The position numbers and the translations under genes were made by a program. From the NCBI GenBank assembly GCA_964344145.1, contig CAYFME010000007.1, positions 2 through 64,001 of the forward strand: DNA of 64,000 bases, in the 5' to 3' direction. Of this stretch, positions 4,751 to 59,508 are shown piece after piece. This DNA comes from an uncultured Gammaproteobacteria bacterium. Lineage in GTDB: Bacteria > Patescibacteriota > Patescibacteriia > UBA9934. Within the stretch, counting starts at the first letter, position 1, and each line of letters opens with the position of its first letter. The notes under the pieces are model-generated. The model was given only the letters and a program-made list of their open reading frames with translations. It did not search any database and was not told where the DNA came from.

Positions 4751-5323
4751 ATGTCTCGCCCGATTCCTGTCGACATCGTGCCGTCCCATGTGTATCTCAG
4801 CCAAGACGATCAGCTGACCTTGTTTGGGCCGGGATATGCGATGACGATCGAGGGTGAGCTCACGCAAAGTGGTCAACATTACTATGAGGAGACCGTGGAT
4901 GTATTTGGACGACTGAAGCGTTCGCTCTCGCTGCGCGTGCTTGGCCCGGCGTGGGAGCATAGTTTTGCCGAACTCACGCCAACGGAAGCAGCGTTTTTAG
5001 GAATGAGTGCGAAGGAAGGGCGCTCAGGAGATCTGGCCGGCGCGGCTGCTTGTCGATTTGTTGGTCCAGCGGGAGAGGTGTCGTTGAAGCAAGGGGTGAT
5101 CATCAGTCAGCCGCATCTGCGTTGCTCTCCTCAAGACGCTCGATCGTTTCATATTAGCAATGGTGACGAGGTTACGATTGAGATCATCGGCAATCATCCT
5201 CGGCGTGTGAGTGGAGTGATTGTGCGCGTGCATCCAACGTTCAAGCTGCAGGTAGATCTTCATGCGGATCATGCTCGCGATCTGTGGATTACTCGACCAA
5301 TACATGCGCGCCTTGTTTCGTAG
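4751..5323 (+). CDS. pduL: PduL/EutD-type phosphate acyltransferase
   Basis: Two tandem repeats with the H.LS..D...FG pattern (PSHVYLSQDDQLTLFG and SQPHLRCSPQDARSFH) are present. The ATG at 4751 overlaps the corA stop. Confidence 0.6.
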   Translation: MSRPIPVDIVPSHVYLSQDDQLTLFGPGYAMTIEGELTQSGQHYYEETVDVFGRLKRSLSLRVLGPAWEHSFAELTPTEAAFLGMSAKEGRSGDLAGAAACRFVGPAGEVSLKQGVIISQPHLRCSPQDARSFHISNGDEVTIEIIGNHPRRVSGVIVRVHPTFKLQVDLHADHARDLWITRPIHARLVS

Positions 5324-5399
5324 CCCCCTCCGGCTCCCCCATAGCTGGGGGAGAGACTCCACGTGTCACCCCTCCAGTCATGGAGGGGCAGGGGGAGGC
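5324..5399. repeat. Family-1 palindromic element, intergenic cargo-less copy (A+B hairpins adjacent)
   Basis: Sequence ccccctccggctcccccatagctgggggagagactccacgtgtcacccctccagtcatggaggggcagggggaggcc starts at the pduL stop codon. Confidence 0.7.
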
Positions 5400-6828: not shown

Positions 6829-8436
6829 ATGTTCTCCTGGCTTTCAGGTAAATCCAACACGATTACAAGCGCGGCGGCCATCGTCGCCTTGTTTTCGATT
6901 TTATCGCGGTTCGTCGGCTTTATTCGAGACCGTATTCTTGCAGGCGCGTTTGGAGCATCCGACACGCTTGATATTTACTTTGCTGCATTTCGCATTCCAG
7001 ACCTGATGTTTCAGCTTGTGGTTGTGGGTGCGCTTTCGGCTAGCTTCATTCCGATTTTCACAAAGTATTACCACCGTAAGCGTGTAAAAAAGGCTTGGAA
7101 GTTCACAAATACGATGCTGACACTGCTAGCCATTGGATTTGGGGTAATCACTGTTGTGATGATGTTTGTTGCCGATCCTCTTGCCGCTCTTGTTGCGCCG
7201 GGATTCGATCCCGAGAAGAGTGCAGCTGTTGCGGATATGTCGCGCGTGATGTTCCTGGCGCAGCTGCTGCTCGCGCTTTCGATGATCTATGGTTCCGTGC
7301 TCCAGGGAGCGAAACGATTTTTTCTCTATTCACTCGCACCAATTTTTTACAACATCGGTATCATCGTTGGAGTTGTGTGGATTGCAACGGAGGATTGGCC
7401 GATCGGATTGGCCTGGGGTGTTGTGCTTGGAGCGGCTCTGCATTTCCTCACGCAGTGGCTTGGTGCTCGTGACCTTGGTCATCGGTTCAAACCGCGTTTT
7501 GTTCTCAAAGACAAAGATGTCGTGTACACGCTCAAGCATATGATGCCACGCACGCTAGGGCTTGCTGTGGGGCAGGTGAATATCTTTTTGATGACAGCAA
7601 TAGCCTCTACGTTGGCGGTAGGGTCCGTGACAGTGCTGCAGTTCGCGTACAACCTGAACTTTTTCGCCGTTGGGATCATTGGCGTGTCGTATGCCATTGC
7701 GGCGTATCCGACGCTGTGTGAGCTGGCGAGTGATAGAAAGAAAACAGCGTTGGTGAAAACGATCTCAACGACCGCACGGCAGATGCTGTTCTTCCTTGTG
7801 CCTGCGACAGTGTTGTTTATTTTGTTGCGCGCGCAAGTTGTGCGTCTTGTTGTTGGTGCTGGCCAGTTTGATTGGGAGGCGACGATCCTCACGGCCAACA
7901 CGTTGGGATTCTTTGCTCTCTCGCTCACGTTACAAGCGCTCGTATTTCTACTCGTTCGTGTTTACTTCGCGCGCGGACAAACCGTAGCGCCGTTTATCAT
8001 TGGTGTGATAGCGGCGATTGTTCACGGAGCCTCAGCAATCATTCTTACGCAATCGATGGAAGTGGTTGGACTAGGGGCGGCATATTCAATTGCCATTGCG
8101 GTGCAGTTTTTGTTGCTTTGGGGTTGGTTGCGCACGCAAATGGGCAGCCTCGATGAGCTTCGAATAATGAAATCACTGTGGATTTTTATTGCTGCTGCCG
8201 TGGCGTGCGGTGTGACGACGCAGGTGGCAAAAACGCTCGTGGTTGAGCTTATTACGCTAGACACATTCTTTGGGGTTTTGGCCCAATTGTTGATTGCTGG
8301 TGGGGTAGGGCTTATTATTTACGTTTTGGTGGCGTATCTATTTAAAAGCCAGGAGCTTTTGGATGTGTTGGGAGGACTAAAACGCAAGCTTATGCGTAGG
8401 CATCATCCAGAAGAGGCAATTTTGGACCAAAGTTAG
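6829..8436 (+). CDS. murJ: lipid II flippase MurJ/MviN
   Basis: The sequence MFSWLSGKSNTITSAAAIVALFSILSRFVGFIRDRILAGAFGAS...DIYFAAFRIPD is the MurJ signature. The track ORF start (6715) reads through the structured element, so the ATG at 6829 is used. Confidence 0.8.
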   Translation: MFSWLSGKSNTITSAAAIVALFSILSRFVGFIRDRILAGAFGASDTLDIYFAAFRIPDLMFQLVVVGALSASFIPIFTKYYHRKRVKKAWKFTNTMLTLLAIGFGVITVVMMFVADPLAALVAPGFDPEKSAAVADMSRVMFLAQLLLALSMIYGSVLQGAKRFFLYSLAPIFYNIGIIVGVVWIATEDWPIGLAWGVVLGAALHFLTQWLGARDLGHRFKPRFVLKDKDVVYTLKHMMPRTLGLAVGQVNIFLMTAIASTLAVGSVTVLQFAYNLNFFAVGIIGVSYAIAAYPTLCELASDRKKTALVKTISTTARQMLFFLVPATVLFILLRAQVVRLVVGAGQFDWEATILTANTLGFFALSLTLQALVFLLVRVYFARGQTVAPFIIGVIAAIVHGASAIILTQSMEVVGLGAAYSIAIAVQFLLLWGWLRTQMGSLDELRIMKSLWIFIAAAVACGVTTQVAKTLVVELITLDTFFGVLAQLLIAGGVGLIIYVLVAYLFKSQELLDVLGGLKRKLMRRHHPEEAILDQS

Positions 8437-8468
8437 CTAGAACAAGCCATTTTATTGTTCAATCGTAC

Positions 8469-8497
8469 TTGACAAAAGTGCGATTTTGTGCTATTAT
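8469..8497 (+). promoter_or_regulatory. near-consensus sigma70 promoter TTGACA-17-(TGc)TATTAT
   Basis: ttgaca lies at 8469-8474 and tattat at 8492-8497, with an extended -10 TG. Confidence 0.55.
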
Positions 8498-8503
8498 TTC
8501 GCT

Positions 8504-8597
8504 GTAAGTAGACCTTAAAAACTCTGCTAAAGAACCAGCGAACAGATTACTGGCATCGACCCAAATGGGGTCTTTGTCGGTTTTTTTGTTAGCACTC
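8504..8597 (+). ncRNA. candidate small RNA or leader transcript (~94 nt) between the consensus promoter and an intrinsic terminator; identity unknown
   Basis: The promoter at 8469-8497 and a terminator hairpin plus U-tract at 8566-8597 bracket the region. No ORF lies inside. No match to tRNA, SRP or preQ1 motifs was recognised by eye. Confidence 0.3.
8566..8597 (+). terminator. rho-independent terminator (cgaccc-aaat-ggggtcg stem + TTTGTCGGTTTTTTT)
   Basis: A GC stem is followed by a 7-T run. Confidence 0.45.
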
Positions 8598-8660
8598 TCA
8601 AAGTGATTCACTTGCTGGATCTCTTCGAGAGCGCGGACCAGATGAAGCGCTCCAGAAAAG
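8593..8660. repeat. Island-A ~70-bp hairpin repeat, copy 1 (GCaCTCTCAAAGTGATTCAC...CTTCGAGAGCGCGGACCAGATGAAGCGCTCCAG)
   Basis: A 12-bp imperfect stem (GCGCTCTCAAAG/CTTCGAGAGCGC) has a ~19-nt variable loop and a conserved 3' tail. It ends ~10 nt before the GTG of ORF 8668. Confidence 0.6.
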
Positions 8661-8667
8661 GCAGACA

Positions 8668-8955
8668 GTGCGAGTCAGGCAGTTGGACTACCTCACGGAT
8701 GAGGTCATCGCCACGTTCCGTCAGGACGTCATGGACTCCGTCAGGGAGTTCGACGCCCTGCTAGAGACGCTCGGCGTGACCCCGGGAGACTTCTGGGGGG
8801 ACCGCCGCACCCGGCAGACCTTCATCACCCGGGTTCGTCTCGATGACGGGATCACGAGGCACTGCACCGTGAAGGTGTCGTACATCGGCTATCCCCACAT
8901 TCGCCTCGTGGCCCTTCTGAAGAAGGAGCCGCTCGGCGATCTCCTGGACCTGTAG
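8668..8955 (+). CDS. hypothetical protein (GC-rich island A)
   Basis: The 95 aa product starts at a GTG. It is preceded by repeat copy 1 and has no recognisable domain. Confidence 0.4.
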   Translation: MRVRQLDYLTDEVIATFRQDVMDSVREFDALLETLGVTPGDFWGDRRTRQTFITRVRLDDGITRHCTVKVSYIGYPHIRLVALLKKEPLGDLLDL

Positions 8956-8984
8956 TCGTAACGTGAACTTAGGCACCGCGCGAC

Positions 8985-9055
8985 GGTGCCGCTCTCAAAG
9001 TGATTCACACGTTGGATCCCTTCGAGAGCGCGGACCAACTGAAGCGCTCCAGAAT
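8985..9055. repeat. Island-A hairpin repeat, copy 2
   Basis: Sequence CGCTCTCAAAGTGATTCACACGTTGGATCCCTTCGAGAGCGCGGACCAACTGAAGCGCTCCAG lies ~10 nt upstream of the ATG at 9065. Confidence 0.6.
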
Positions 9056-9064
9056 GGGATAGAC

Positions 9065-9412
9065 ATGGCCACCAAGCCTTTGATCCGTAAGGAGTTTCGG
9101 GGGATTGCGAGGCAGAGGACGCCTTTGCGCCACTGGCGGATGCTGCTGTGGAGTATTCAGCGCATGATCAGTGGCAATCTGTCGTGGTGTTGGACGGATA
9201 GCGCTCACGATGTGCTGGGCGACTATCCGGGCGTCACCTCCTCCATCGAGAGCGGCGACGCCTACGGGTTTAAGGGCACGACGTGTTACGTCCTGCACCT
9301 CAAGCTCGAGGGTACGCCCGTGCGGATCGTCCAGCGTCACTCGCTCGAAGAGGCATGGGTGGAGTTCTACGGCCCCTTGCCTGCGTACCTGCGTGGCACG
9401 CTCGACGACTAG
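9065..9412 (+). CDS. hypothetical protein (GC-rich island A)
   Basis: The 116 aa product starts MATKPLIRKEF. The same repeated leader precedes ORF 8668. Confidence 0.4.
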   Translation: MATKPLIRKEFRGIARQRTPLRHWRMLLWSIQRMISGNLSWCWTDSAHDVLGDYPGVTSSIESGDAYGFKGTTCYVLHLKLEGTPVRIVQRHSLEEAWVEFYGPLPAYLRGTLDD

Positions 9413-9590
9413 CTCCTCCAACTTGTAACTTCGGAACCGTTCCCGGTCAGCTGGACGCTGCCGGGGTTCCCCATAGCTAATCACGCGATCCTGCGTGGTG
9501 GGCTACGGTGGAGCCGACGCTCCCCACATGCGTACAAACGTCCTGTTCTCCATATTGCGGCAACGCAGGTAACGGAGGCAGGCGAGTAAT

Positions 9591-9776
9591 GTGATGGAAC
9601 TGCTTGAGTTCCTCGTTGCACTCCTGGTGAAGTACACTGGGATGACCGACGCCCAGGCGTTCGACCTGGTGGGTGGGATGATTCTCTGGAGTGCTCCCTT
9701 GACGGTCGCTGCTGTCTTCGTGCTGATCTGGCTCATGGATTGGGCCGAGAGGAGGCGTGATGGAGAGGCCCGGTAG
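9591..9776 (+). CDS. small hydrophobic protein (holin-like, 1-2 TM)
   Basis: The 61 aa product has a hydrophobic core LIWLMDW and a basic tail. It overlaps the next ORF by 20 nt. Confidence 0.35.
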   Translation: MMELLEFLVALLVKYTGMTDAQAFDLVGGMILWSAPLTVAAVFVLIWLMDWAERRRDGEAR

Positions 9777-9966
9777 TGCACCGCTGGTGTCACTGATCAG
9801 CGTCCTGGCATCCGCATGCATCGTGTTCCTGATCGTGATGGGCGTGATGCACTGGGGCTACGGCCAGAACGTCAACGACGACTTCGGTGCCCTGATCGTG
9901 GTCGCCGCCATCGCTACTCCCGTGCTCCTTGGTGCAAGAACCATGGCACGAGACGGCATCCTCTAG
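9757..9966 (+). CDS. small 2-TM membrane protein
   Basis: The 69 aa product has two hydrophobic segments. Confidence 0.35.
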   Translation: MMERPGSAPLVSLISVLASACIVFLIVMGVMHWGYGQNVNDDFGALIVVAAIATPVLLGARTMARDGIL

Positions 9967-9994
9967 CGAGTCTCCCGGCGTCGCACTCGCGCGG

Positions 9995-10052
9995 CGCCGG
10001 CGCTCTCAAAGCGACTCATTCGTGGGTCCCTTCGAGAGCGCGGACCAACATT
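9995..10052. repeat. Island-A hairpin repeat, copy 3 (lacks the 3' tail)
   Basis: Sequence CGCTCTCAAAGCGACTCATTCGTGGGTCCCTTCGAGAGCGCGGACCAACAT. Confidence 0.55.
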
Positions 10053-10057
10053 AAGAA

Positions 10058-10095
10058 GACCCCTGCCAAGGATGGCGGGGGTCGGCTGTTTTTTT
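10058..10095 (+). terminator. rho-independent terminator (gacccctgcc-aaggatg-ggcgggggtc + GCTGTTTTTTT)
   Basis: A 10-bp stem with one G-U pair is followed by a 7-T run. It sits between convergent genes. Confidence 0.45.
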
Positions 10096-10145
10096 AAGCA
10101 CGAACCCCTCCGCGGCCCAGACGGGCGGGAGGGGTTTGACGGTGT

Positions 10146-11360
10146 TCAACGAACGCGCTCGAGCGTTTGTCGAATCTTCCAGCGGTCAGGTCGACGTAGA
10201 AAGGAGAGGACCTCACGCTTGTACTCGATCTGCTCAGGCGGTGGACTGACGATGCGGCGAGTGACGTTGCGTCCACGCTCCGCACCTGGCATGGCGATGT
10301 AGCCGCGTTTCTTGAGATCGGCGAGGATATCCGGTCTGTGCGGGCAGACGAGCAGCTGCACGGCCTTCACCTCGCGGGCGGTCAGTGGACGATCTCCGAC
10401 GATCTCTTGTGCGGCCCAGAGCGCTTCCAGGATGTACGTGTGTCGCCGACTGGGCAGGAGTCCGTTGTTCGACGGCGGGGTAGGAGTCGGTGCGGGTCCA
10501 GGGATCTCTGGCCCCTTTTCTTCCTTGCTCTCCGGCTGATGGAAGTCTGGGAACGTTGCGCGGTGCAGTTCCGTGAGCGCACGCGTCGACCGGGCCACCA
10601 CGTTGTCGATGAACGGTAGGCCCATGACATTGAGTCTCGGCAGGGCGTAGACCCGTACGTTACTTCCTGGCAGCAAGCCTCTTTCCTTCCGCATCATCTT
10701 ACGGGCGGTGATGATGTCGAAGTTGCGACACAGCCGCTCTGCGCATGACAGCGCTTCCTGAAGCGGGATCCCGTCACGCCTGAAGAGCATGGCGATTTCC
10801 AGACCGTTCAGGATACGACGCTTCAAGCCGGTCATGAGGTTGTGGATCTCGACAAGGAGCAGGACATCCCACGGGTCCATGCCGTTCCGGCGGGCGCCGG
10901 CATGCGGCATGCTGCCGTAGTCTCGGATCGTTGACCGCTCCGGTGTCGGCTCGGGATCAGGATCTGGCGACTTGGGGCCCGGCTCAGGATTTGATACGAC
11001 CTCCACCGGTCGATGCCTAACCTGCCGCCGTAGAGCACCACGTTCTCCTTGCACCAGGAGCGCGACGAGATCGTCGGGAAGGCGCTTCCTCCTGGGGGTC
11101 TCTATCTCCCGGAAGTGTTCTCTCTTGGGAACACGCAGAACCCAGAAGTTTCCACCAGCGCGTGAACGAATGGACATCACCCGGCGGTCGTAGATCGTCG
11201 CGGCCATCGGGTTGAACTCACCCGCGCAATCGTGCCAGTCACGGAGGATGTTGACCTGCCAGAGCAGGAGTCCGTCTTCCACCTCACTGTTGCTGTTGAT
11301 GATCCGTGCGGCGTCCCTCAGGAACGCCAGCACGCGGCTCGAAAATTCGAACATCGCCAT
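10146..11360 (-). CDS. hypothetical protein, 404 aa, ~63% GC with Pro/Glu-rich linkers (foreign, actinobacterial-like composition)
   Basis: It is the longest ORF in island A. The segment PEPGPKSPDPDPEPTPE is typical of high-GC Gram-positive proteins. No domain was recognised. Confidence 0.5.
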   Translation of the reverse strand: MAMFEFSSRVLAFLRDAARIINSNSEVEDGLLLWQVNILRDWHDCAGEFNPMAATIYDRRVMSIRSRAGGNFWVLRVPKREHFREIETPRRKRLPDDLVALLVQGERGALRRQVRHRPVEVVSNPEPGPKSPDPDPEPTPERSTIRDYGSMPHAGARRNGMDPWDVLLLVEIHNLMTGLKRRILNGLEIAMLFRRDGIPLQEALSCAERLCRNFDIITARKMMRKERGLLPGSNVRVYALPRLNVMGLPFIDNVVARSTRALTELHRATFPDFHQPESKEEKGPEIPGPAPTPTPPSNNGLLPSRRHTYILEALWAAQEIVGDRPLTAREVKAVQLLVCPHRPDILADLKKRGYIAMPGAERGRNVTRRIVSPPPEQIEYKREVLSFLRRPDRWKIRQTLERVR

Positions 11361-11436
11361 GACATTCCCTCCTTACTGTATTGTTATCGCAAAAGACGCC
11401 CTTGATCAAGCAGACTTGCTGATATAGGATAATCCC

Positions 11437-13191
11437 ATGAACGCAAACGAACTGCGCCGCAAGTACATCGATTTCTTTGTTACAAAAGGCCACGCCGAAA
11501 TCCCTTCGGCTTCTTTAGTTCCGGAAAACGATCCATCGGTGCTGTTTACGACCGCCGGCATGCATCCGTTGGTGCCTTACTTGATGGGCGAGAAGCACCC
11601 AGCTGGCAATCGGTTGGTCGACTATCAAAAATGTGTTCGTACTGGCGATATCGATGAGGTCGGCGACAACACGCACCTCACATTCTTTGAAATGCTCGGT
11701 AACTGGTCGTTGGGCGACTACTTCAAAGATGAGTCCATTGAATGGAGCTACGAGTTTCTAACATCGAAAGACTGGCTCGGCATCGACGTCGATCGTTTGG
11801 CTGTCAGTGTATTTGCCGGCGACGACGACGCACCCTTTGATCAAGAAGCGTTCGATAAGTGGATTGCACTGGGCATTCCAGAAGCGCGCATTGCAAAACT
11901 CGGAAAAGACGACAACTGGTGGCCAGCAGGTGGTAAGCATCCAGGTCCACAAGGTCCTGACACAGAAATCTTCTATTGGACCGGTGACGACGACGCTCCC
12001 GAAGCGTTCGATCCAGAAAATGATCTTTGGGTGGAGATTTGGAACAACGTTTTCATGCAGTTTTCCAAAGGAGATGATGGAGTGCTTTCACCACTTGAAA
12101 AGACCAACGTTGATACCGGCATGGGCCTTGAGCGTACGCTTGCGGTCTTTAACGGAAAGGCGAGCGTGTTTGAGACAGATTTGTTTGTACCGATTATCAA
12201 ACAAATTGAGTCTATTTCGAAACGATCGTATAACGAGCACGAACGTTCAATGCGTATCATTGCGGACCACATTCGTACGGCAGTGATGATGATTGCGGAC
12301 GGTGTGATGCCATCCAACAAAGATCAAGGGTATATTTTGCGCCGACTTATTCGTCGCAGCGTGCGAGAGATGATGAAGATTAACGAAAAGCACTCGGTGA
12401 ATGGAGTTGTTGATGTAGCGGCAGACACGCTCGCGGACGCGTATCCAGTCTTGAACGAAAAGCGCGATGCGATTAAGGATGCGATCGCCGCTGAGGTGGC
12501 GAAGTTTGGCAAGACGCTCAAGAAAGGTCTGCGCGAATTTGAGAAGCTGAGCAACGTTGACGGCAAAGCGGCGTTTGATTTGTATCAAACATACGGCTTC
12601 CCATTGGAGCTTACTGAGGAGATGGCGCGTGAAAAGGGCACTGAGGTTGACCACGACGTGTTTGAAGCTGAGTTTAAAAAGCATCAAGATCTGTCGCGCA
12701 CAGCATCAGCAGGAAAGTTCAAAGGAGGACTAGCGGATTCGAGTGAAAAAACGACGCAGTTGCACACCGCGACGCACTTGATGCTTGCGGCGCTGCGTAA
12801 GTATCTCGGTCCGGAGGTGCATCAGGCCGGATCGAACATCACGGCTGAGCGCACACGCTTTGACTTTACGTGGCCGGAGAAAGTCGAACGTGATGTCCTT
12901 GATCAGGTTGAAGCGTACGTTAACGATGCGATCGAAAACGAGGCGACCGTAAAGATCGAAGTGTTGCCAAAGCAGCAGGCGCAGGATGAGGGGGTTGAGG
13001 GAAGTTTCTGGGAAAAGTATCCGGATCAAGTCAACGTCTACAACGTGATCGGTAAGGACGGCACGGTCTATTCCCGGGAGCTTTGCGGTGGACCTCATGT
13101 GAAAACCACAAAGGGAATGGGGACGTTTAAGATTGTCAAAGAACAGTCATCTTCCGCCGGAATTCGTCGAATTAAGGCCATTCTTGGCTAA
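11437..13191 (+). CDS. alaS: alanyl-tRNA synthetase (short form, lacks the C-terminal C-Ala domain)
   Basis: The N-terminal class II core MNANELRRKYIDFFVTKGHAEIPSASLVP...FTTAGM is present. The editing-domain HTATHLM motif is present. The product is 584 aa. Confidence 0.85.
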   Translation: MNANELRRKYIDFFVTKGHAEIPSASLVPENDPSVLFTTAGMHPLVPYLMGEKHPAGNRLVDYQKCVRTGDIDEVGDNTHLTFFEMLGNWSLGDYFKDESIEWSYEFLTSKDWLGIDVDRLAVSVFAGDDDAPFDQEAFDKWIALGIPEARIAKLGKDDNWWPAGGKHPGPQGPDTEIFYWTGDDDAPEAFDPENDLWVEIWNNVFMQFSKGDDGVLSPLEKTNVDTGMGLERTLAVFNGKASVFETDLFVPIIKQIESISKRSYNEHERSMRIIADHIRTAVMMIADGVMPSNKDQGYILRRLIRRSVREMMKINEKHSVNGVVDVAADTLADAYPVLNEKRDAIKDAIAAEVAKFGKTLKKGLREFEKLSNVDGKAAFDLYQTYGFPLELTEEMAREKGTEVDHDVFEAEFKKHQDLSRTASAGKFKGGLADSSEKTTQLHTATHLMLAALRKYLGPEVHQAGSNITAERTRFDFTWPEKVERDVLDQVEAYVNDAIENEATVKIEVLPKQQAQDEGVEGSFWEKYPDQVNVYNVIGKDGTVYSRELCGGPHVKTTKGMGTFKIVKEQSSSAGIRRIKAILG

Positions 13192-17252: not shown

Positions 17253-18143
17253 ATGGAGTTTATCTACGCATTGCCGACGATCTTGCTGTTCGTTGTGCAG
17301 TCGATGACACCAACGTATGAGCTACAACCTGGTCAGACAGTGATCGCTTCCTACTTGGTAAACGAAGAGGCGGAACTTTACGATCCGCTTGTTGTGGAAG
17401 GATTGCCAGACTACTTTGAAGAACTTGCGGAGGACCGTGCTACCCACGAATGGATGTGGGATTTTGTCATCGAATCAATTGATGAAGTATTTGTCGTGGA
17501 ACACGTTGTCGGCTTCGATATCTTTATCGACACCCCAGACGACGATCTGCTCGCTTACGTGATTCAGTCCTGGGATGATCCAGAGAAATGGATCGTCTCG
17601 TTTGACATTGAGGACATGCAAAATGAGGGGATGTTTTACCAAACAGCTATTCATGAGCTGGCTCATCTTATCACGCTCGGCGCGCATCAAGTGGAGATGT
17701 CGCATGTGGCGTTTTATGCTGATCTGTCCGATCCAATCTACCAGGAACGGTACGATCAGGTTGTCGCGACCTGCGAAACGTATTTTACGGGCGAGGGGTG
17801 TGCGCATTCGGATTCCTACATCTATCAATTCACGCAAACCTTTTGGAGAGACCTGTTCTCGACGTATGGACCGGTCGACACCAATCAAGGCGACATAGAT
17901 TTCTACGTTGGCAGAGGGGATCAGTTTGTCACAAGCTATGCGTCGACCAATCCTGGGGAGGACATCGCGGAATCATTTATGTTCTTTGTCATTCGTTCAA
18001 AGGCTGAGGATGATTCTGTAGCATCAGCAAAGCAAAACTTTTTCTATCAATATCCTGAGTTCGTAGAGCTGCGCGATAATATTAGAGGGTATCTTGGTGA
18101 CGCACGTTTGAGAATGAGTTTTAAGTCGAACAAAGAGCGATGA
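17253..18143 (+). CDS. HExxH-motif putative zinc metallopeptidase, paralog 1
   Basis: HELAHLITLG and a TNPGEDIAESF block are present. It is ~35% identical to the following gene. Confidence 0.5.
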   Translation: MEFIYALPTILLFVVQSMTPTYELQPGQTVIASYLVNEEAELYDPLVVEGLPDYFEELAEDRATHEWMWDFVIESIDEVFVVEHVVGFDIFIDTPDDDLLAYVIQSWDDPEKWIVSFDIEDMQNEGMFYQTAIHELAHLITLGAHQVEMSHVAFYADLSDPIYQERYDQVVATCETYFTGEGCAHSDSYIYQFTQTFWRDLFSTYGPVDTNQGDIDFYVGRGDQFVTSYASTNPGEDIAESFMFFVIRSKAEDDSVASAKQNFFYQYPEFVELRDNIRGYLGDARLRMSFKSNKER

Positions 18144-18144: not shown

Positions 18145-19434
18145 ATGAATAACAAGGCAAACATGTTTGGACTTTTTCTGTTTCTGGCCCTCCTGCCGTT
18201 GCAGGTCCACGCCTACGAAACGACTCTTGCATCGTATCTCGTGGACGAGGACGGCGAGCTTTATGATTTGATTACGAGCACGAACCTCACAGGCCAGCAA
18301 AACTTGCTCGCGCAGGACACGGAAACGCATGAGTGGATGTGGGACCAGTTTGTCGGCATCGGAGGAGAGGAGTTCATTACGGAGAACGTCTCGCAGTTTG
18401 ACATCTTTGTTGACACTCCAGAGGAGGACTTTCTTGCGTATGTGGTGCAGGATTCTTGGGACATGAGTAAATGGATCGTCTCACTCGATATCGAGGACAT
18501 GCTCGAGGATCTCGATTACTTTAATGAAACGTTGATTCACGAATTCACACATCTTCTCACACTTGGCGTGGATCAAGTCGATGTGGCGGCTGTGTGGAGT
18601 GAATGGGATTTGCCTGATCATGAGTGGTACGAGCTTTACGATGAGGAAGTCGCTGCGTGTGAGACGTACTTCACCGGCGAGGGGTGTGCACATGAAGACG
18701 CGTACATCTACGATTTCGTTCTTGCGTTCTGGCAGGAGATTTTTGATGAGCATGGAGCGATCGATACGAACGGTGATGGAATCGATTTCTATACAGACAA
18801 CGAGCTCGACTACGTGACGTGGTATGCGGCAACCAATCCGGGTGAAGACATTGCTGAGTCGTTCGCGTATTTTGTACTTGAAGATGAGGCTGATGAAACC
18901 TATGTCCGTGGTCAAAAGCAGAACTTTTTTTACGAATATGCTGAACTCGTTGAGCTTCGTGAGAACATCCGCGCGTTCTTGAACATTACGTCAGATGTTG
19001 CTGATCAGATCGTGGAAGAAACGCCAGAGGTGACGGCACTGATTGATCGTCTTGCTGGTCAGATTATGTTGATGGTCGATAGGGATGGGGAAGCGTGGTA
19101 CATCGATCCGGTTACACGATTGCGTTATTATCTTGCCGACGGTCCAACCGCGTACGAGTTTTTGCGAACATTCGGACTTGGTATTACGAACGCTGATCTC
19201 GCACAGATCCCATCGTCAGACGATCCTGTTGGCGGCGGGTCTCTTGCCGAGGCATTGTCTGGGCGGATTTTGTTGCAAGTCGAAGAGCGCGGCGAGGCGT
19301 GGTACGTCAATCCAACTGATCTAAAACGATACTACTTGGCCGACGGTGATGCCGCCTACACAATCATGCGCGAGCTTTCTGAGGGAACGCTTGCTGAGTG
19401 GATAGAGGACATCGCTTCGGGATCAGTGCAATAA
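18145..19434 (+). CDS. secreted HExxH-motif putative zinc metallopeptidase, paralog 2, with a C-terminal tandem ~60-aa repeat
   Basis: A signal peptide MNNKANMFGLFLFLALLPLQVHA precedes HEFTHLLTLG. A repeat GEAWY(I/V)(D/N)P..L.RYYLADG occurs twice. Confidence 0.55.
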   Translation: MNNKANMFGLFLFLALLPLQVHAYETTLASYLVDEDGELYDLITSTNLTGQQNLLAQDTETHEWMWDQFVGIGGEEFITENVSQFDIFVDTPEEDFLAYVVQDSWDMSKWIVSLDIEDMLEDLDYFNETLIHEFTHLLTLGVDQVDVAAVWSEWDLPDHEWYELYDEEVAACETYFTGEGCAHEDAYIYDFVLAFWQEIFDEHGAIDTNGDGIDFYTDNELDYVTWYAATNPGEDIAESFAYFVLEDEADETYVRGQKQNFFYEYAELVELRENIRAFLNITSDVADQIVEETPEVTALIDRLAGQIMLMVDRDGEAWYIDPVTRLRYYLADGPTAYEFLRTFGLGITNADLAQIPSSDDPVGGGSLAEALSGRILLQVEERGEAWYVNPTDLKRYYLADGDAAYTIMRELSEGTLAEWIEDIASGSVQ

Positions 19435-22276: not shown

Positions 22277-23272
22277 ATGGCAAAGATCCTTCTACCAACA
22301 CTAGACTATCCTCCCCGCACCGGTGGCGTTGCGCGTTACTTGGAGGCAATCAAACAGACCTTGGGGGATGACATGGACGTCCTCTTTTTTGACGATGCCC
22401 CTGGACGACTGTCGATGCTGTGGACGCTTTGGAAGCGTTCGCGATCGTATGAACAGGCTTGGACAAGTCACATTCTTCCAATTGGAACGATGTTGTGGTT
22501 GTTACGGCGGCGTTATAGTGTCTTTTTGCATGGCATGGACTTTGATCTTGCGCGGCGTAGTGCGTGGAAGCGATGGCTTACACGACGTATTCTGAGGCGC
22601 GCTCAGCACGTGTTTGCGAATTCACACGCGCTCGCTTCGGAGATTGGGTCGTTTTGCAACCGAAGGGTGGAAGTTGTGTATCCATGTGTGAGCGATGCGT
22701 TTGTAGAGGCATCGAATGTTGTGCGTCGCGAATCTCACGAAGGCGTAACGCTTCTGACGGTTGGACGATTAGTTGAGCGCAAAGGACATATGGATATGCT
22801 AGAGATCGTTCGTCGCAACAACGATCTGAAATACGTCATTGTCGGCGACGGACCAATGCGTAAGACGATTGAGGACTTTGTCGATGAACATGAGCTTGCC
22901 GATCGCGTTGAGTTATTACAGTCCGTTCCTGATCGCAAGCTGCCGTCGATCTATGCGCGTGCGGATATCTTTGTTATGCCTACACATAAATCTGAAGGTG
23001 ATCGTGAGGGCTTCGGTATCGTGTATCTTGAGGCGCAGCTGTTCGGCACGCCGGTTATCGCTGTTTCTCATCCCGGAGTTAATGAGGCGGTTGTTGAAGG
23101 GGTGGGTGGATTATTGATAAACAGCCATGAGGACCTAGATACGGCTGTAAAAAAGCTGGTTAATGGCCGAGAACTTCGGGAGCAGTTGGGTCGACGAGGG
23201 CAAGAGTTCGTTAAGGCAAAATTCACGAGAGAACACCAGTTTTCTGCTTTGAGGAGCTACATTCCCTCGTGA
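22277..23272 (+). CDS. GT4 (GT-B) glycosyltransferase
   Basis: The ExFGxxxxE motif EGFGIVYLEAQLFGTPVIA is present. Confidence 0.75.
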   Translation: MAKILLPTLDYPPRTGGVARYLEAIKQTLGDDMDVLFFDDAPGRLSMLWTLWKRSRSYEQAWTSHILPIGTMLWLLRRRYSVFLHGMDFDLARRSAWKRWLTRRILRRAQHVFANSHALASEIGSFCNRRVEVVYPCVSDAFVEASNVVRRESHEGVTLLTVGRLVERKGHMDMLEIVRRNNDLKYVIVGDGPMRKTIEDFVDEHELADRVELLQSVPDRKLPSIYARADIFVMPTHKSEGDREGFGIVYLEAQLFGTPVIAVSHPGVNEAVVEGVGGLLINSHEDLDTAVKKLVNGRELREQLGRRGQEFVKAKFTREHQFSALRSYIPS

Positions 23273-23276
23273 ACAT

Positions 23277-24011
23277 TTGGTACGATCGCCACAAATGTTA
23301 ACCGATATGGATCTTGTTTCGATCATCATCCCAACCTATCAGCATGCCGATAGTCTGCCGGTTTGCCTTGATTCGGTATTGGCTCAGACGTACGAGCCTA
23401 TTGAGGTGATCGTCGTGGACGACGGGTCGACGGACAATACGCAAGAGGTGCTTGCGTCGTATGCGCAGCGCGTGATGATGATCAGGCAAGAAAACCAAGG
23501 ACCTCAGTTGGCACGCATGCGCGGGTTTGAAGAGTCGAAAGGCGCATACGTGATTTTTTGTGATGCAGACGTCGAAATGCGACCAGACATGTTGGAGAGG
23601 TTGTACGGCGTGCTGCAGGCACATCCTGAAGCAAGTTATGCGTACTGCGGTTTCAGGTTTGGCTGGAAGCGATTTCATCCAGTGCCATTCGATGCACAGC
23701 GCCTCAAGCGCCATAACTATATTCACACGACTAGCCTCGTACGTCGTACGGACTTTCCAGGCTTTGACCCCGAGGTGAAGCGTCTACAAGATTGGGATGT
23801 TTGGCTGACGATGCTTGCACAAGGGAAGAAGGGTGTTGTCGTGGCTGAGGAGTTGTTTACCGCGCATATCGACGGTTCGTCACGCATCGGAACCGCCTGG
23901 ATGCCGTCGTGGATCTACAAACTGCCATGGAATATGATCGGATGGCGGCCGAAGCGTCTGCGAAAGTACGAAGAGGCGAAGCGGGCGCTCGTGAAGAAAC
24001 ACGGTTTATGA
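23277..24011 (+). CDS. family 2 glycosyltransferase
   Basis: VSIIIPTYQHADSLPVCLDSVLAQTY and IEVIVVDDGSTD are GT2 signatures. Confidence 0.7.
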   Translation: MVRSPQMLTDMDLVSIIIPTYQHADSLPVCLDSVLAQTYEPIEVIVVDDGSTDNTQEVLASYAQRVMMIRQENQGPQLARMRGFEESKGAYVIFCDADVEMRPDMLERLYGVLQAHPEASYAYCGFRFGWKRFHPVPFDAQRLKRHNYIHTTSLVRRTDFPGFDPEVKRLQDWDVWLTMLAQGKKGVVVAEELFTAHIDGSSRIGTAWMPSWIYKLPWNMIGWRPKRLRKYEEAKRALVKKHGL

Positions 24012-26620: not shown

Positions 26621-26666
26621 TTATTCATCTCGATTCACTTAGTGAGTCGAAGTAGCAGGAGTGTGT

Positions 26667-28514
26667 ATGGCATACGATCCTCAAGCACAGCGCAAGATCG
26701 CGGGCAACTGGCGCGAGTACCTCAACACGATCGCGCAGAGCATGCGCGTCTACCGATGGGTATGGGACGAGCTGATCGACAGGGACGCGCGACGCTGGGT
26801 GAAGCGGATGGTCGCGGCGCTGTTCGTCACGCTGGCCTTCTTCATGGCCATGCCATGGTTCATCAGTCTCGTGTTCGATGGCCTCGTCGCGCGCGATGTT
26901 CGTCAGCTCGGCATCGGTCTGATCGGATTTCTGGCCTGTCTGTTGGTGATGCGTGTGATGGATTACCTCACGGGCATCTGTCGTGAGTGGGTGCTGGGAC
27001 TCAACATGGGTACACGACATGACCGCATTAGCGAACTGTTCTTCGAGAAATCGCTGGGACAGCACGCGAAGCACCACGATCTTCTCTCGTCATCCAACGT
27101 GGAGAAGGGTCTTGGGAAGGTGTCTGAGTCGCAGGAGATGATGCTCTTTGAGGGCACGGAAGTCCTGCTGACCTTGCCGATCTCATGGGTCTTCCTGTGG
27201 ATTGTGAGTCCGGTGGCTGGCACGATCATGACCGTTGCGCTTCTGGCGCACGTTGTCTGGTCGATGTACCTCAACCGTCGGGTGGTAGAAGTCTGTACGC
27301 CGCTGGATGAGCAGTTCCGTAAGCACAACCGCTACCAGCGCGAGCGCTGGAAGCAGATTGTGCGCGTGAAGGTCAATGCGAAGGAGCGTGAGGAGCTCGA
27401 CAAGATGGATCGATGGTTCCATCGTATCCTCGATTCGGACCGCGACTTCTGGATGCGCTTCATCCTGCACGCGGTCGGTCGTGGAACGTTGACGAACCTC
27501 TTCGTCTTCGGTGTGCTCGTGTACGGCGCGTGGATGGTGTGGGGCGGCTTCTGGCAGGTTGGTCTGCTGTACCCGGTTTTCACCTGGTCCTCGATGATGC
27601 GTGATAACCTGTGGCGTCTGAGCCATGTGGAGCATCGCCTTAACTGGAATTATCCAGCGATCGCATCGTTGCGCGAAGCGCTGACCATTGAGCCCGATAT
27701 CGTCGATACCGCAGACGCCGTGGCACTCAGCCCGGACGAACCGGTGCACGTTGAAATCGACTGTGTCACGCATGCCTACGAAGATGGTGTGCAGGTGCTC
27801 AAGAACGTCTCGCTTTCGATCGAGCCCGGTCAGAAGGTTGCTCTTCTTGGGCTCTCGGGAGCCGGAAAGTCCACGCTTACACAGTTGGTTCTGCGTCAGA
27901 TGGATCCGACGGGTGGCTCGATTCGTGTGAACGGCCACGACCTGCGTGAACTGGAGCTCGCCTCATGGTTGAGCACTGTTGGGCACATCCCGCAGGACTC
28001 CGCAATCCTCGACGGAACGCTTCGCTACAATCTGCTCTACGGTCTGACTGCCCAGGAGATTGAGCAGATGGACGACGATCGAATCCGCGAGCTGATGGCA
28101 AGTGTGGAAATCGACTTCGACCGAGACGGTCTGGAAACGCTGGTTGGTGAGGGCGGCATTAAGCTCTCGGGTGGACAGCAGCAGCGCGTGATGATTGGTG
28201 CGGCAGCGATGAAGAAGCCGCGCTTCATGGTCATTGACGAGGCGACCTCCAGCCTCGATGCGGTTACGGAACGCAAGGTTCATGATGGGTTGCACAAGGT
28301 GCTGACTGCCGACATGAGTGCGCTCATCATCACGCATCGACTCTCAACGGTCCGTGACCTGTGTGATACGTTCGTTGTGATGCGTCCGGCAAAGGGCCTG
28401 ATCAACGGCACGCCGCAGATCGAGGCGGTCGCTGGTTCGTTCGAGGAGCTCTATAGGGTCTCCGAGACGTTCCGCGTGCTCGCCGACGAGCAGGGCCTTG
28501 ACGTGTCGCGCTGA
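26667..28514 (+). CDS. ABC transporter fused permease/ATP-binding protein (MsbA-like exporter), ~62% GC
   Basis: A 6-TM N-domain is followed by Walker A GLSGAGKST, the signature LSGGQQQRV and Walker B FMVIDEAT. Confidence 0.75.
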   Translation: MAYDPQAQRKIAGNWREYLNTIAQSMRVYRWVWDELIDRDARRWVKRMVAALFVTLAFFMAMPWFISLVFDGLVARDVRQLGIGLIGFLACLLVMRVMDYLTGICREWVLGLNMGTRHDRISELFFEKSLGQHAKHHDLLSSSNVEKGLGKVSESQEMMLFEGTEVLLTLPISWVFLWIVSPVAGTIMTVALLAHVVWSMYLNRRVVEVCTPLDEQFRKHNRYQRERWKQIVRVKVNAKEREELDKMDRWFHRILDSDRDFWMRFILHAVGRGTLTNLFVFGVLVYGAWMVWGGFWQVGLLYPVFTWSSMMRDNLWRLSHVEHRLNWNYPAIASLREALTIEPDIVDTADAVALSPDEPVHVEIDCVTHAYEDGVQVLKNVSLSIEPGQKVALLGLSGAGKSTLTQLVLRQMDPTGGSIRVNGHDLRELELASWLSTVGHIPQDSAILDGTLRYNLLYGLTAQEIEQMDDDRIRELMASVEIDFDRDGLETLVGEGGIKLSGGQQQRVMIGAAAMKKPRFMVIDEATSSLDAVTERKVHDGLHKVLTADMSALIITHRLSTVRDLCDTFVVMRPAKGLINGTPQIEAVAGSFEELYRVSETFRVLADEQGLDVSR

Positions 28515-30379: not shown

Positions 30380-32126
30380 ACGTAACTTGCAGTATGCAGC
30401 TGTCAGGAAGTTGTTGCAAGTAGGGCAGTAGTTTGCCGTATTTTTGCGGTGGTGTCAAGATCTCGATCGTGTCGTTAATGCGAAAGACAAGTGCATTTAG
30501 CTGCTTTGCCTTCTGAATAACCGTATCTAGACGGGCATCCTTCGTTCCGTGAACGCGGATATTCACTCGGTAACGAAACGGCGGGAGGTGATACGTGTGT
30601 CGCGTTTTCCGTTCGGTGTTGATGAAGGATTCAATGCTCTGCATCGGACGGATGAGTGTTGGCGTGAAGGTCTGGATGAGGCATGTTGTGCGCTGCGTTT
30701 GTGCAAAGAGCGCCAGACGATGGACACGCGAGGCCATTTGTATTCCTGCGTTGGCGTCACCACCCATGTGAAGATCGGTACACGCGTCGGCAACAATACC
30801 AACATTCCATCGCTTGAATGCACGGTGCAGGGTTTGAAAGAAGTATTCGGTCACAAGAAGGATGTCGGCGCTCAATTGTCGATGCTCCTGTTTGTCGACG
30901 ACAGCAATCGAAGCGTTTGGGAACGCTTGCTTCCAAGATTCGATTAGGCGTTTGTTGCCAATGCCGCGCGGCTTAAGGTTCACGCCCTGGCATGACGGAC
31001 AGGACTCCGGGATCCACATTTCCGCATGACACACGCTACAGACAAGGTCGCCGGAGCGCATTTTCGGAACAGATCCGCAGGAACCGCAGTAGGGAATGTG
31101 TCCGCAATCTTTGCACTGCAACCTTTTTGCGTATCCTTTGCGGTTGTACAGAACGATCGCGCGTTTGTTTGCAGCGAGCGCGTTGTCGATATCTGATTTG
31201 AGGCTGTGAGAAAGAAACGGTGTGGACGTCTTTTCGTCTTGGGCCGTGAGATCTACGATACGAAATGCGACATCGGATGCATCAAGCTTTTCTTGATCGG
31301 GACGAATGCGTGGAATCGAACCGCAAGAGAGAAATTCGGCGTTGTGTTGTTTGGCGAGAAGACGTGCCGCGTGGGCCGCATCAAAGCGAGGGTTGCGATC
31401 GTATTGCACGTGGTCGGGATGCGTAGGGTCATAAACGATCACGGCCTCAATCTTTTTTGCTGACAGAAGCGAAGCTTGCTTTGTTCCAACGAGAATATCG
31501 ATCACGCCTTTGCGCCAGTCTCGGATGATTTGCGCGCGTTCGTTGTGGGGTGTGTGGCCATGCAGGTACGCAACGGTCTTGGTATCGGGTAGATATGTGG
31601 CAAGATCGCGTGCGTCTGTTTCGTGGGGCGTGATGATGAGCAGTTGATGCTCAAGCGTACCTGACAGTCGATAGGCCAGAGTGATACACGTTTCCACAGA
31701 ACCCTGCACAAATAATACGCCACCGGGTGGCGTATTGCGGACACCGGTTACCTGCTGAGCGATTTTTGGATGTACAAGGGGATTGAGCGTTGGTTTCGGT
31801 CGCACGGCTGGTCGGGGCTTGCGGTCGATGCCGATGAGCGTTTGATAAAACAGTGTCGATGGTGACTGGACAATCGTCTGCGCGATCGTTTCGATACGAG
31901 TGATATCTGACGGCAGAAAGAGTTGTGGAATGACGACGCGATCGATACTCGATAGTCGCTTATCCGTTCCAGCCTCTGCCTTGATCTGACGAACCACGCC
32001 CAGTACGCTTCGTCCCTTCAGCGGTACGCGCACAAGATCACCAACGCCGACGTCCTCATTGCACGTGTAATCAAAAACGCCGAACCTCCTGGGCAGGCGC
32101 GTGACAGGGTAGACCTCGGCGAACAT
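30372..32126 (-). CDS. priA: primosomal protein N' (PriA) homolog with degenerate helicase motifs
   Basis: The C-terminal Cys-rich zinc-binding region CKDCGHIPYCGSCG...CSVCH...CPSCQG is PriA-like. Walker A reads GSVET, not GSGKT. DEEH is replaced by TPHE. A family-2 palindrome encodes NTPPGGVLF at the Walker A position. Confidence 0.7.
   Translation of the reverse strand: MFAEVYPVTRLPRRFGVFDYTCNEDVGVGDLVRVPLKGRSVLGVVRQIKAEAGTDKRLSSIDRVVIPQLFLPSDITRIETIAQTIVQSPSTLFYQTLIGIDRKPRPAVRPKPTLNPLVHPKIAQQVTGVRNTPPGGVLFVQGSVETCITLAYRLSGTLEHQLLIITPHETDARDLATYLPDTKTVAYLHGHTPHNERAQIIRDWRKGVIDILVGTKQASLLSAKKIEAVIVYDPTHPDHVQYDRNPRFDAAHAARLLAKQHNAEFLSCGSIPRIRPDQEKLDASDVAFRIVDLTAQDEKTSTPFLSHSLKSDIDNALAANKRAIVLYNRKGYAKRLQCKDCGHIPYCGSCGSVPKMRSGDLVCSVCHAEMWIPESCPSCQGVNLKPRGIGNKRLIESWKQAFPNASIAVVDKQEHRQLSADILLVTEYFFQTLHRAFKRWNVGIVADACTDLHMGGDANAGIQMASRVHRLALFAQTQRTTCLIQTFTPTLIRPMQSIESFINTERKTRHTYHLPPFRYRVNIRVHGTKDARLDTVIQKAKQLNALVFRINDTIEILTPPQKYGKLLPYLQQLPDSCILQVTYG
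31714..31736. repeat. Family-2 palindrome (AATACGCCACCGGGTGGCGTATT) embedded in-frame in priA
   Basis: Its core is identical to the copies at 34289-34351. Confidence 0.65.
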
Positions 32127-34265: not shown

Positions 34266-34288
34266 GGCGTGATTATAGCACGTATTTA

Positions 34289-34351
34289 GAATACGCCACC
34301 CGGTGGCGTATTCCTCGTCGACTGCAGAATACGCCACCGGGTGGCGTATTC
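34289..34351. repeat. Family-2 palindromes, two inverted 25-bp copies (GAATACGCCACCCGGTGGCGTATTC and its reverse complement) 13 bp apart
   Basis: Copies lie at 34289-34313 and 34327-34351 in the divergent promoter region. Confidence 0.7.
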
Positions 34352-39626: not shown

Positions 39627-39653
39627 ACATTTGTGGCGATCGTCACAAATGTT
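39626..39653. repeat. Family-3 palindrome copy a (AACATTTGTGGCGATCGTCACAAATGTT), between 39222..39626 and the wecB-like gene
   Basis: A 28-bp near-perfect palindrome with one mismatch pair has a CGATCG core. TTGACC follows it. Confidence 0.65.
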
Positions 39654-39664
39654 GACCAACTAGT

Positions 39665-59451: not shown

Positions 59452-59483
59452 GGCGGTAGTTTAGCACACTTACGAGAGGTCAA

Positions 59484-59508
59484 TATTTATGGCGATCGCC
59501 ACAAATTG
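59484..59508. repeat. Family-3 palindrome copy b (ATTTATGGCGATCGCCACAAATT), 35-57 bp upstream of the helicase-nuclease start
   Basis: A perfect GGCGATCGCC core sits in symmetric flanks. TGACC is adjacent on the minus strand. Confidence 0.6.

Follow-up and report, generated by a model that had tools for sequence, protein, structure and literature searches.

What are three copies of one hairpin doing between the small genes of a foreign-looking DNA island in an uncultured bacterium? We investigated this question in a stretch of 64,000 nt (positions 2 to 64,001 of contig CAYFME010000007.1, assembly GCA_964344145.1; referred to below as the window) from an organism deposited as an uncultured Gammaproteobacteria bacterium and placed by GTDB in the Patescibacteriota (UBA9934). 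Between murJ, which ends at 8436, and alaS, which starts at 11437, this genome of ~50% GC contains a GC-rich island of 2.8 kb (8592 to ~11361, 61% GC) with five open reading frames (ORFs). Four small ORFs on the + strand (o95, o115, o61 and o69) face one long ORF on the - strand (ORF404), and the + strand contains three copies of an imperfect hairpin of ~47 nt whose GGACCA tail is invariant. As discussed below, we tentatively read these repeats as an RNA element that acts in cis and is present three times in the + strand transcript of a small operon (o95-o115-o61-o69) of horizontal origin, a reading that we hold at slightly under even odds. All evidence comes from one clonal population, represented by four sister samples that contain no diversity usable for comparison.

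Three copies of a hairpin with an invariant tail

The repeats and the elements adjoining them are as follows.

8592-8640, + strand: repeat copy 1, with the stem at 8592-8634, the tail GGACCA at 8635-8640 and a slightly degenerate 5' arm (GCACTCTC)
8641-8667, + strand: shared leader of copy 1 (GATGAAGCGCTCCAGAAAAGGCAGACA), ending at GTG 8668
8972-8990, + strand: short GC hairpin (GGCACCG-CGCGA-CGGTGCC) in the gap from o95, whose stop codon lies 17 nt before it, to copy 2
8990-9037, + strand: repeat copy 2, hairpin 8990-9031 and GGACCA; the sole complete module (GC hairpin, main hairpin and leader)
9038-9064, + strand: shared leader of copy 2 (ACTGAAGCGCTCCAGAATGGGATAGAC), 27 nt, ending at ATG 9065
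9975-10000, + strand: short GC hairpin between the o69 stop codon and copy 3
9997-10047, + strand: repeat copy 3, hairpin 9997-10043 and GGACCA; the helix runs exactly up to ACCA, and no leader follows
10054-10096, no strand assigned: strong intrinsic terminator with an 11-bp stem (8 GC pairs) and a T7 run (10058-10096), U-rich on both sides, between the small-ORF operon and ORF404

The 18-mer CTTCGAGAGCGCGGACCA occurs exactly three times in the window, always on the + strand (at 8623, 9020 and 10030), where 0.03 occurrences are expected, and none of 100 shuffles reached three. Separate repeat finding gave the same three copies, with copies 1 and 2 being 90% identical across 63 nt. A covariance model built from the three copies found only those three in the window (80-83 bits), the next, unrelated match scoring 16.8 bits. 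The three copies that a preliminary description of this locus had noticed are thus real, with their coordinates corrected to hairpins at 8592-8634, 8990-9031 and 9997-10043, each followed by GGACCA. The longer common tail that it had given, (A/C)TGAAGCGCTCCAGAA, is present in copies 1 and 2 and absent from copy 3.

The alignment of the three copies yields the repeat unit GC(G/A)CTCTC-A-AAG-(T/C)-GA(T/C)TCA-[loop 4-5 nt]-TGG(A/G)TC-(T/C)-CTT-C-GAGAGCGC-GGACCA. Its 3' arm and tail (CYCTTCGAGAGCGCGGACCA) are invariant, while the 5' arm and loop vary. The helix has ~19 steps, consisting of 17 pairs and two conserved 1x1 mismatches, with 96% of cells paired. Both mismatches, an A.C and a pyrimidine.pyrimidine, are kept in all three copies, even with base changes (U.U, U.C and C.C). 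One pair shows a compensatory change from U-A to C-G, and the loop is different in each copy (CUUGC, CACGU and UUCG). Stems that are kept around a free loop are the pattern expected of a selected stem-loop, a pattern that at three sequences carries no statistical weight.

Predicted fold energies of copies 1 to 3 are -19.3, -27.0 and -27.3 kcal/mol on the + strand and -21.2, -22.8 and -29.0 kcal/mol on the - strand (z-scores -3.0 to -4.7). The inner stem folds better on the + strand (U.G versus C.A), and the total energies are equivalent between strands. A 12-bp stem pairing through a G-U on the minus strand had been proposed earlier; this stem exists, but as a part of the full helix of ~19 steps, and folding in both orientations gave equal results for the two strands. 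In a longer messenger RNA (mRNA) context the hairpin has a base-pair probability near 1 in each of the three copies (z-scores -3.3 to -4.7). The repeat is non-coding, as the reading frames through the three copies differ. We rejected it as a coding sequence or upstream ORF on account of these inconsistent frames and because the ATG of the copy 1 leader is CTG in copy 2. No promoter of sigma-70, extracytoplasmic function (ECF) or sigma-54 type was found in the repeat, either by scanning or by eye.

A candidate intercistronic element acting in RNA

The similarity between copies 1 and 2 extends beyond the hairpin and its tail. Their leaders align without gaps up to the start codons GTG 8668 and ATG 9065, and the hairpin ends 34 nt before the start in both. 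The proposal that these copies serve as repeated shared leaders is borne out by this 63-nt module in register with the starts of two non-paralogous ORFs. Because o95 and o115 show no paralogy, the module is not a simple by-product of gene duplication, and tandem duplication of a gene was therefore rejected as the source of the repeat.

Each copy has the parts that its position among the genes would call for. Copy 1 consists of the main hairpin and leader; an upstream GC hairpin is missing, as the sequence before it is already host DNA. Copy 3 consists of the upstream GC hairpin, main hairpin and tail, and is followed, in place of a leader, by the terminator, which lies 10-15 nt past it; that copy 3 precedes a terminator had been noted before and holds. 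The first copy thus has no part that belongs after a gene, the last has none that belongs before a gene, and the internal copy has both.

This arrangement can be described as a module of three parts. Part A would be the short GC hairpin right past the upstream stop codon; part B the helix of ~19 steps with its two conserved mismatches, free loop and invariant single-stranded GGACCA tail; and part C the 27-nt leader bearing the ribosome-binding region of the next ORF. The internal copy would then read A+B+C, the first copy, which has no upstream gene, B+C, and the last copy, which has no downstream gene, A+B followed by the operon terminator. This is the pattern expected of an intercistronic 'punctuation' element. 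From this layout, the orientation on the coding strand and the register with the starts of two unrelated genes, we infer an intercistronic element that acts at the RNA level; the enzymes or proteins named below as acting on it are candidates. All three copies are oriented like the four small ORFs, on their coding strand, and are confined to the island. As far as the sequence tells, action of the stem-loop in mRNA is the most likely.

We rank as the most likely action that the stable helix would be a site of endonucleolytic processing, with RNase III and RNase P as candidate enzymes. In overall shape, a duplex of about two turns interrupted by internal mismatches resembles the RNase III sites of phages, which makes RNase III a candidate. 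Like the hairpin described here, the phage sites (T7 R0.3-R18.5 and the lambda N leader) are stem-loops of ~20 bp with internal mismatches that lie between cistrons. Processing of early phage transcripts by RNase III leaves a protective 3' hairpin and can free a downstream ribosome-binding site. Unlike these sites, however, the repeat has an invariant GGACCA tail, which is not an RNase III feature; cleavage here is purely putative, and RNase III sites have no defining sequence motif that could be tested. RNase P is a candidate because the hairpin is followed by RCCA, and in copy 3 the helix abuts ACCA exactly; bacterial RNase P reads an RCCA-type tail next to a helix. Alternatively or additionally, the helix may block exonucleases, which would protect an end of each cistron and give all of them the same kind of translation-initiation region. 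A regulator encoded in the island may also use the invariant 3' arm and tail as its operator. We favour a function in processing and stability combined with a standardised translation-initiation region, any particular enzyme or operator being putative.

Several observations weigh against an element acting in RNA. No promoter for the operon was found within the island, and the sole good promoter nearby (8469-8497) lies upstream of a terminator-like hairpin, so that the + strand transcript is putative. Copy 1 lies exactly on the island border, which a function in RNA only does not explain. The covariation in the stem has no statistical weight, as 156 of 500 shuffles do as well with three sequences from one population. 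Its stability on the minus strand, or as a DNA-type palindrome, equals that on the + strand, so that the strand of the helix is assigned from gene context only. Finally, no RNA-binding or RNase domain is recognisable in any island protein.

The nearest described system, by analogy of architecture only, is that of the extended start-associated sequences (ESAS) and start-associated sequences (SAS) of Cluster K mycobacteriophages. There, 17-bp imperfect inverted repeats with a variable spacer of 4-13 nt accompany a conserved 13-nt motif that lies 3-8 nt before the start codons of unrelated non-structural genes; a role in translation or protein binding is presumed, although their function is still unknown (Pope et al. 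2011, PMC3203893). In both systems, the coding strand carries paired imperfect inverted repeats of 17-19 nt that enclose a short spacer of variable length (here 19-nt arms and a 4-5-nt spacer). A conserved asymmetric stretch and the ribosome-binding region come next and stop a few nt ahead of the start codons of unrelated small genes (here o95 and o115). Their sequences are unrelated, as checked in the TM4 genome, where the arms are TGTTGACACCTCAACAG and the 13-nt SAS motif is GGGATAGGAGCCC. Copy 2 contains GGGATAGACATG, which matches the first 7 nt of the SAS motif only, whereas copy 1 has AAGGCAGACAGTG, so the motif is not common to both; the GGGATAG match of copy 2, being absent from copy 1, is probably due to chance. 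The systems also differ in the distance from hairpin to start (~34 nt here versus ~22-25 nt) and in copy number (three in 2.8 kb here versus 11-19 per phage genome). Moreover, one copy here lies in a 3' untranslated region (UTR) without a following gene, and nothing shows a phage origin of the island.

In sequence the element forms a new family, but its general kind is known: repeated intergenic stem-loop leaders in acquired DNA. If it works as proposed, it would be a second independent example of a hairpin-plus-leader module of the ESAS/SAS type before unrelated small genes. The mechanism of such modules is still unknown even in the well-studied mycobacteriophages. A compact version with three copies and only four small genes would lend itself well to experiments. 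So far a single population has yielded the element, which limits the practical value of the finding.

Alternative explanations for the repeat

Could the hairpin be a dispersed repeat of the donor genome that was carried in passively and has no dedicated role in this host? It would then resemble repetitive extragenic palindromes and bacterial interspersed mosaic elements (REP/BIME), Correia or enterobacterial repetitive intergenic consensus (ERIC) elements, or the U-less 'I-shaped' terminators of a high-GC donor. We consider this unlikely, although the foreign composition of the island would fit it, and the hairpins lie 33-35 nt past the stop codons of o95 and o69, like 3'-UTR palindromes. Dispersed intergenic palindromes are typically co-transcribed and imperfect, and further GC3-rich islets in the window (GC3 being the GC content at third codon positions) indicate that uptake of GC-rich DNA was repeated; both points also speak for passive carriage. 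REP/BIME, ERIC and Correia elements are, like the hairpin, imperfect palindromes (theirs of 40-130 nt) in transcribed intergenic regions, and can stabilise upstream mRNA or be cut by RNase III. However, such elements occur in tens to hundreds of copies genome-wide, and REP/BIME palindromes are often accompanied by a REP-associated tyrosine transposase (RAYT), whereas the three copies found here lie in one island and no donor genome was found.

Searches for relatives of the repeat also argue against passive carriage. The exact 18-mer has 91 matches among 185,579 species-representative genomes, none of which has the 5' arm, so none is a real copy. A pattern made from the arms only gave 10 matches in IMG/VR, all of them due to chance, and 25 matches in metagenome contigs, none with the inner stem or tail, so that neither collection returned a true copy. 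Rfam gave no matches in the window at the gathering threshold and only chance-level ones (E above 1) in 8400-11500. Passive carriage moreover leaves unexplained why the 27-nt leader is in register with two start codons, and the proper terminator directly past copy 3 makes the hairpin unneeded for termination. Two related candidates were rejected. The repeats are not intrinsic terminators, since they are followed by GGACCA(GA/AC) without a U tract and a separate canonical terminator lies past copy 3. Nor are they a dispersed repeat of the host (REP/BIME-type), as there is no copy outside the island in the 64-kb window and no species-representative genome with a real copy.

A further explanation, which we find improbable, is that the hairpin is a protein-binding operator, as an RNA or DNA palindrome, for an island regulator such as ORF404 or the basic N-terminus of o115. 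It would coordinate translation or transcription of o95 and o115 in the manner of ESAS/SAS or of coat protein and operator. The contrast between the invariant 3' arm and tail and the variable 5' arm and loop suggests sequence-specific recognition beyond pairing, and the conserved mismatches point the same way. ORF404 is convergent with the operon and has the terminator in common with it, and o115 contains 8 basic residues within its first 26. On the other hand, no island protein has a DNA- or RNA-binding domain, a helix-turn-helix guessed at the C-terminus of ORF404 has no fold support, and copy 3 has no gene to regulate. The compensatory change also favours base pairing over recognition of dimer half-sites.

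The hairpin could also be a DNA-level site of recombination or mobility, attC-like or IS200/IS605-like, with cassettes at 8592-8990 and 8990-10047 and with ORF404 as an unrecognised recombinase. We regard this as distinctly improbable; the idea of DNA cassettes is still alive because copy 1 lies on the island border and ORF404 is unknown. Unrelated ORFs lie between same-orientation copies, the bottom strand folds equally well, and the break-points of similarity fit a crossover just past GGACCA(AC). In integron attC arrays, including clusters of attC sites lacking integron-integrases (CALINs), same-orientation imperfect hairpins likewise separate small, unrelated and mostly orphan ORFs, and the variable loop and conserved unpaired positions of the repeat recall the variable terminal structure of attC. 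In CALINs, IntI is absent next to the array.

Several properties set the repeat apart from such sites. In agreement with the preliminary description, it does not match attC cores: there are no complementary R'' (RYYYAAC) and R' (GTTRRRY) sequences, and the stem base is GCGCTCTC/GAGAGCGC. The one near match to a core, GACCAAC (6/7), stands without a partner outside the helix and is missing from copy 1. With 43-47 nt of helix and loop, the repeat is shorter than any attC (57-141 nt), and it has two 1x1 mismatches instead of the bulged extrahelical bases of the L-box. It also runs on into the leader of the next gene, with no stop at a cassette boundary. No domain of a tyrosine, serine, HUH, DDE or IS110-type recombinase was found in the island ORFs or the other window ORFs scanned, including no match to Phage_integrase, and no att-like direct repeats of at least 9 nt flank the island. 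Together with the absence of R''/R' cores, this leaves the cassette array that had been suggested unsupported. Furthermore, the right border has no hairpin, the second 'cassette' would comprise three ORFs and a structured spacer of 178 nt, and the island is invariant across four samples. IS200/IS605 ends were rejected as well, given no Y1_Tnp or OrfB match, no hairpin at the right border and no flanking repeats. A stronger version, in which the hairpins would be folded-DNA sites of an unseen cassette-capture system, copy 1 the chromosome junction and ORF404 a recombinase of a new fold, integron-like without integron homology, seems to us very improbable.

Least credible, and hardly to be expected, is a processive antitermination signal (nut/put-like). 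Transcribed before the genes and the terminator, it would modify RNA polymerase together with a small basic protein, o115 for instance, in the role of lambda N. In its favour, the 5' arm CGCUCUCA matches lambda boxA (CGCUCUUA) at 7 of 8 positions, one copy lies 10-15 nt before a strong terminator, and another belongs to the leader of o115, a small basic protein, just as nutL belongs to that of N. Against it, the motif match is short and post hoc, the boxA-like bases are buried in a stable stem, and the loop, which is the part recognised by N-type proteins, is not conserved. Read-through would yield merely RNA antisense to ORF404, and there is no homology to N, Q, Nun or LoaP.

A lambda-type nut site in the strict sense was rejected on the same grounds (the boxA-like octamer within the stem, the loop that is not conserved and no match to an N/Nun family). 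Two other candidates were set aside. A tRNA-like minihelix for the alanyl-tRNA synthetase AlaRS, an idea that came from the ACCA tail and the neighbouring alaS, has no G3.U70, and the helix abuts ACCA in copy 3 only. A group II intron inserted after a terminator would bring a reverse transcriptase or an Rfam match, and neither was found.

The island, its genes and further features of the window

The GC content rises abruptly from 0.40-0.45 to 0.59-0.64 at ~8590 and drops again at ~11370 (300-nt windows). GC3 is 0.72-0.88 in the island ORFs versus ~0.55 in the flanking host genes. By its composition, the island is supported as foreign, horizontally acquired DNA. The island with both junctions recurs in contigs that were assembled independently for the sister samples (ENA project PRJEB17505): contigs of 132.9 kb (ERR2281801), 112 kb (ERR2281800) and 1.2 kb (ERR2281803), and one of 578 bp across the left junction (ERR2281802), with two single-base changes in total among them. 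An assembly chimera is very unlikely, given identical junctions in contigs from ERR2281800, ERR2281801 and ERR2281802. The earlier suggestion of a GC-rich, foreign fragment therefore stands, as the GC steps are sharp, GC3 is raised and the junction is present in four sister samples. Its further identification as a phage or plasmid fragment found no support, with no DNA or protein matches in phage, plasmid and IMG/VR collections.

The island contains the following genes and one long spacer.

8668-8955, + strand: o95, a soluble orphan ORF of 95 aa with a GTG start and GC1/2/3 of 0.65/0.38/0.88
9065-9412, + strand: o115, an orphan ORF of 115 aa with an ATG start, a basic N-terminus (8 basic residues in the first 26), 5 Trp and GC3 of 0.81
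9413-9590, + strand: spacer between o115 and o61, 178 nt, highly structured (z-score -3.2), with several stable hairpins
9591-9776, + strand: o61, a small ORF of membrane type; it has a single hydrophobic segment, a charged C-terminus (ERRRDGEAR) and a probable start at ATG 9594
9757-9966, + strand: o69, a small ORF that begins within the end of o61 and has two hydrophobic segments and a probable start at ATG 9760
10146-11360, - strand: ORF404, an orphan of 404 aa with three segments and Pro-rich linkers; the ribosome-binding sequence AAGGAGGG lies 6 nt before its ATG

ORF404 is convergent with the small-ORF operon, and the terminator between them is common to both. The spacer 9413-9590 matches no Rfam family and has no relation to the hairpin repeat. 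All five ORFs have the codon-position GC pattern of genuine genes from a GC-rich source (GC3 0.72-0.88, GC2 0.38-0.47), whereas overlapping alternative ORFs in the island show shadow patterns, and the ENA gene calls agree with the set of five. These codon statistics argue that the five ORFs are real genes.

No relatives of these genes were found. Neither Pfam, PHROGs, NCBIfam nor PADLOC matched any of the five ORFs. A word-indexed search of 5.8 billion clustered proteins with ORF404, o115 and o95 recovered only their own sequences from the sister samples, and an exhaustive phmmer search with ORF404 against 1.84 billion cluster representatives recovered only itself. PDB sequences matched ORF404 at E 0.9 or worse. 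Searches with tblastn against phage genomes (o61, o69 and ORF404) gave nothing significant, IMG/VR locus scans (ORF404 and o69) gave nothing, and blastn of the entire island against phages and plasmids gave zero matches. The 64-kb window contains no paralogues of the five ORFs elsewhere, and o61 and o69 are not paralogues of each other either. In the libraries searched, conservation of the ORFs outside this one population was thus nil, which had been named beforehand as a point on which the preliminary description could fail. Its statement that the long minus-strand ORF has no recognisable domain is correct and extends to homologues.

Structure prediction did not change this picture. A single-sequence AlphaFold2 model of ORF404 has a predicted local distance difference test (pLDDT) score of 42 overall and 64 for the C-terminal 115 residues, and confident prediction is restricted to residues ~300-355 and 390-404, which are helical. 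Foldseek of the ORF404 models against PDB gave nothing below E = 4, and a winged helix or helix-turn-helix at the C-terminus was dropped, as the fold search gave no support. The two small hydrophobic ORFs, which had been called holin-like or membrane peptides, are of membrane type (one segment in o61, two in o69). 'Membrane peptides' is a fair description, while 'holin' is only a guess for which just the hydrophobicity speaks, as there are no matches to holin families, no other homology and no lysin gene in the island. Holins are small proteins with 1-3 transmembrane segments and a charged C-terminus that are recognised by a neighbouring endolysin gene or by their homology to a holin family. 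Any function of the five island proteins would be putative.

Three features lie at the borders of the island.

8469-8497, + strand: near-consensus promoter of sigma-70 type (TTGACA-17-TATTAT with TG, 11/12 matches) in DNA of host composition, pointing into the island
8549-8588, + strand: terminator-like hairpin with U7 on the host side (z-score -2.95), marking the left border; the island begins 4-5 nt past the T run
11361-11436, no strand assigned: AT-rich intergenic region of host composition at the right border, with the palindrome CTTGATCAAG

The right edge of the island is the start codon of ORF404, and the 75 nt from there to alaS are AT-rich. Region 11361-11436 presumably holds the divergent control regions of ORF404 and alaS, as read from signals under the scan threshold. 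On the left side, the gap between murJ and the island (8469-8592) contains, in DNA of host composition, the near-consensus promoter and ~50 nt on the terminator-like hairpin with U7. This could be a small RNA gene of ~85 nt or a remnant of an alaS leader that predates the insertion; Rfam gave no match.

Besides murJ and alaS, the window contains ribosomal-protein and rpoA genes, several aminoacyl-tRNA synthetases, mreBC, PBP2, clpB, priA and ATP synthase genes. Among these lie at least five further GC-rich islets of a single ORF each, at 34690-35253 (+), 38592-39140 (-), 48766-49455 (+), 60640-61323 (-) and 26661-28514 (+), with GC3 of 0.97, 0.96, 0.83, 0.90 and 0.74, respectively (housekeeping genes ~0.55). 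Their products are three Pfam-less orphans (one of them lipoprotein-like, with a signal peptide ending in LTGC, and one a membrane protein), one His_Phos_1 phosphatase and one ABC transporter. The hairpin repeat is absent from every one of the five. This composition suggests that the genome has repeatedly taken up GC-rich genes. Such acquisition of very GC3-rich orphan genes by a genome of ~50% GC, to which the island would be a further witness, bears on the origin of orphan genes in streamlined uncultured bacteria. The part of the window with the lowest GC (0.40-0.43) contains an ORF at 54800-55504 (-) that encodes a cyclodipeptide synthase (CDPS) domain (E = 9e-11) and may have been acquired too.

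Other repeats in the window are distinct from the hairpin described here. The 36-nt palindrome GTGAACATTTGTGGCGATCGTCACAAATGTTGACCA has four copies of host composition (23269-23304, 39623-39658, 59479-59514 and 60003-60038) and resembles an operator that a dimeric regulator would bind, or a motif associated with promoters. Two families of G/C-rich hairpin repeats, CTCCCCTCCAGTTATGGAGGGGCAGGGGGAGGC (168-208, 2179-2219 and 5359-5399) and GCCCCCTCCGGCTCCCCCATAACTGGGGGAGGGACTCC (1767-1807 and 5323-5363), adjoin at 5323-5399 and are probably REP-like or terminator repeats of the host. The perfect palindrome GAATACGCCACC(C/G)GGTGGCGTATTC occurs three times (31712-31737, 34288-34313 and 34326-34351), two of the copies being in tandem 13 nt apart, and a perfect 26-nt inverted repeat (TGGGGTCAGGTCTTGAATCTTGAATT) with arms 29 nt apart is found at 2378-2458. 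Finally, the adjacent, Pfam-less ORFs 17253-18143 and 18145-19434 contain paralogous segments (17586-17831 versus 18469-18717, 74-85% DNA identity), which identifies the pair as a tandem duplication of an unknown gene.

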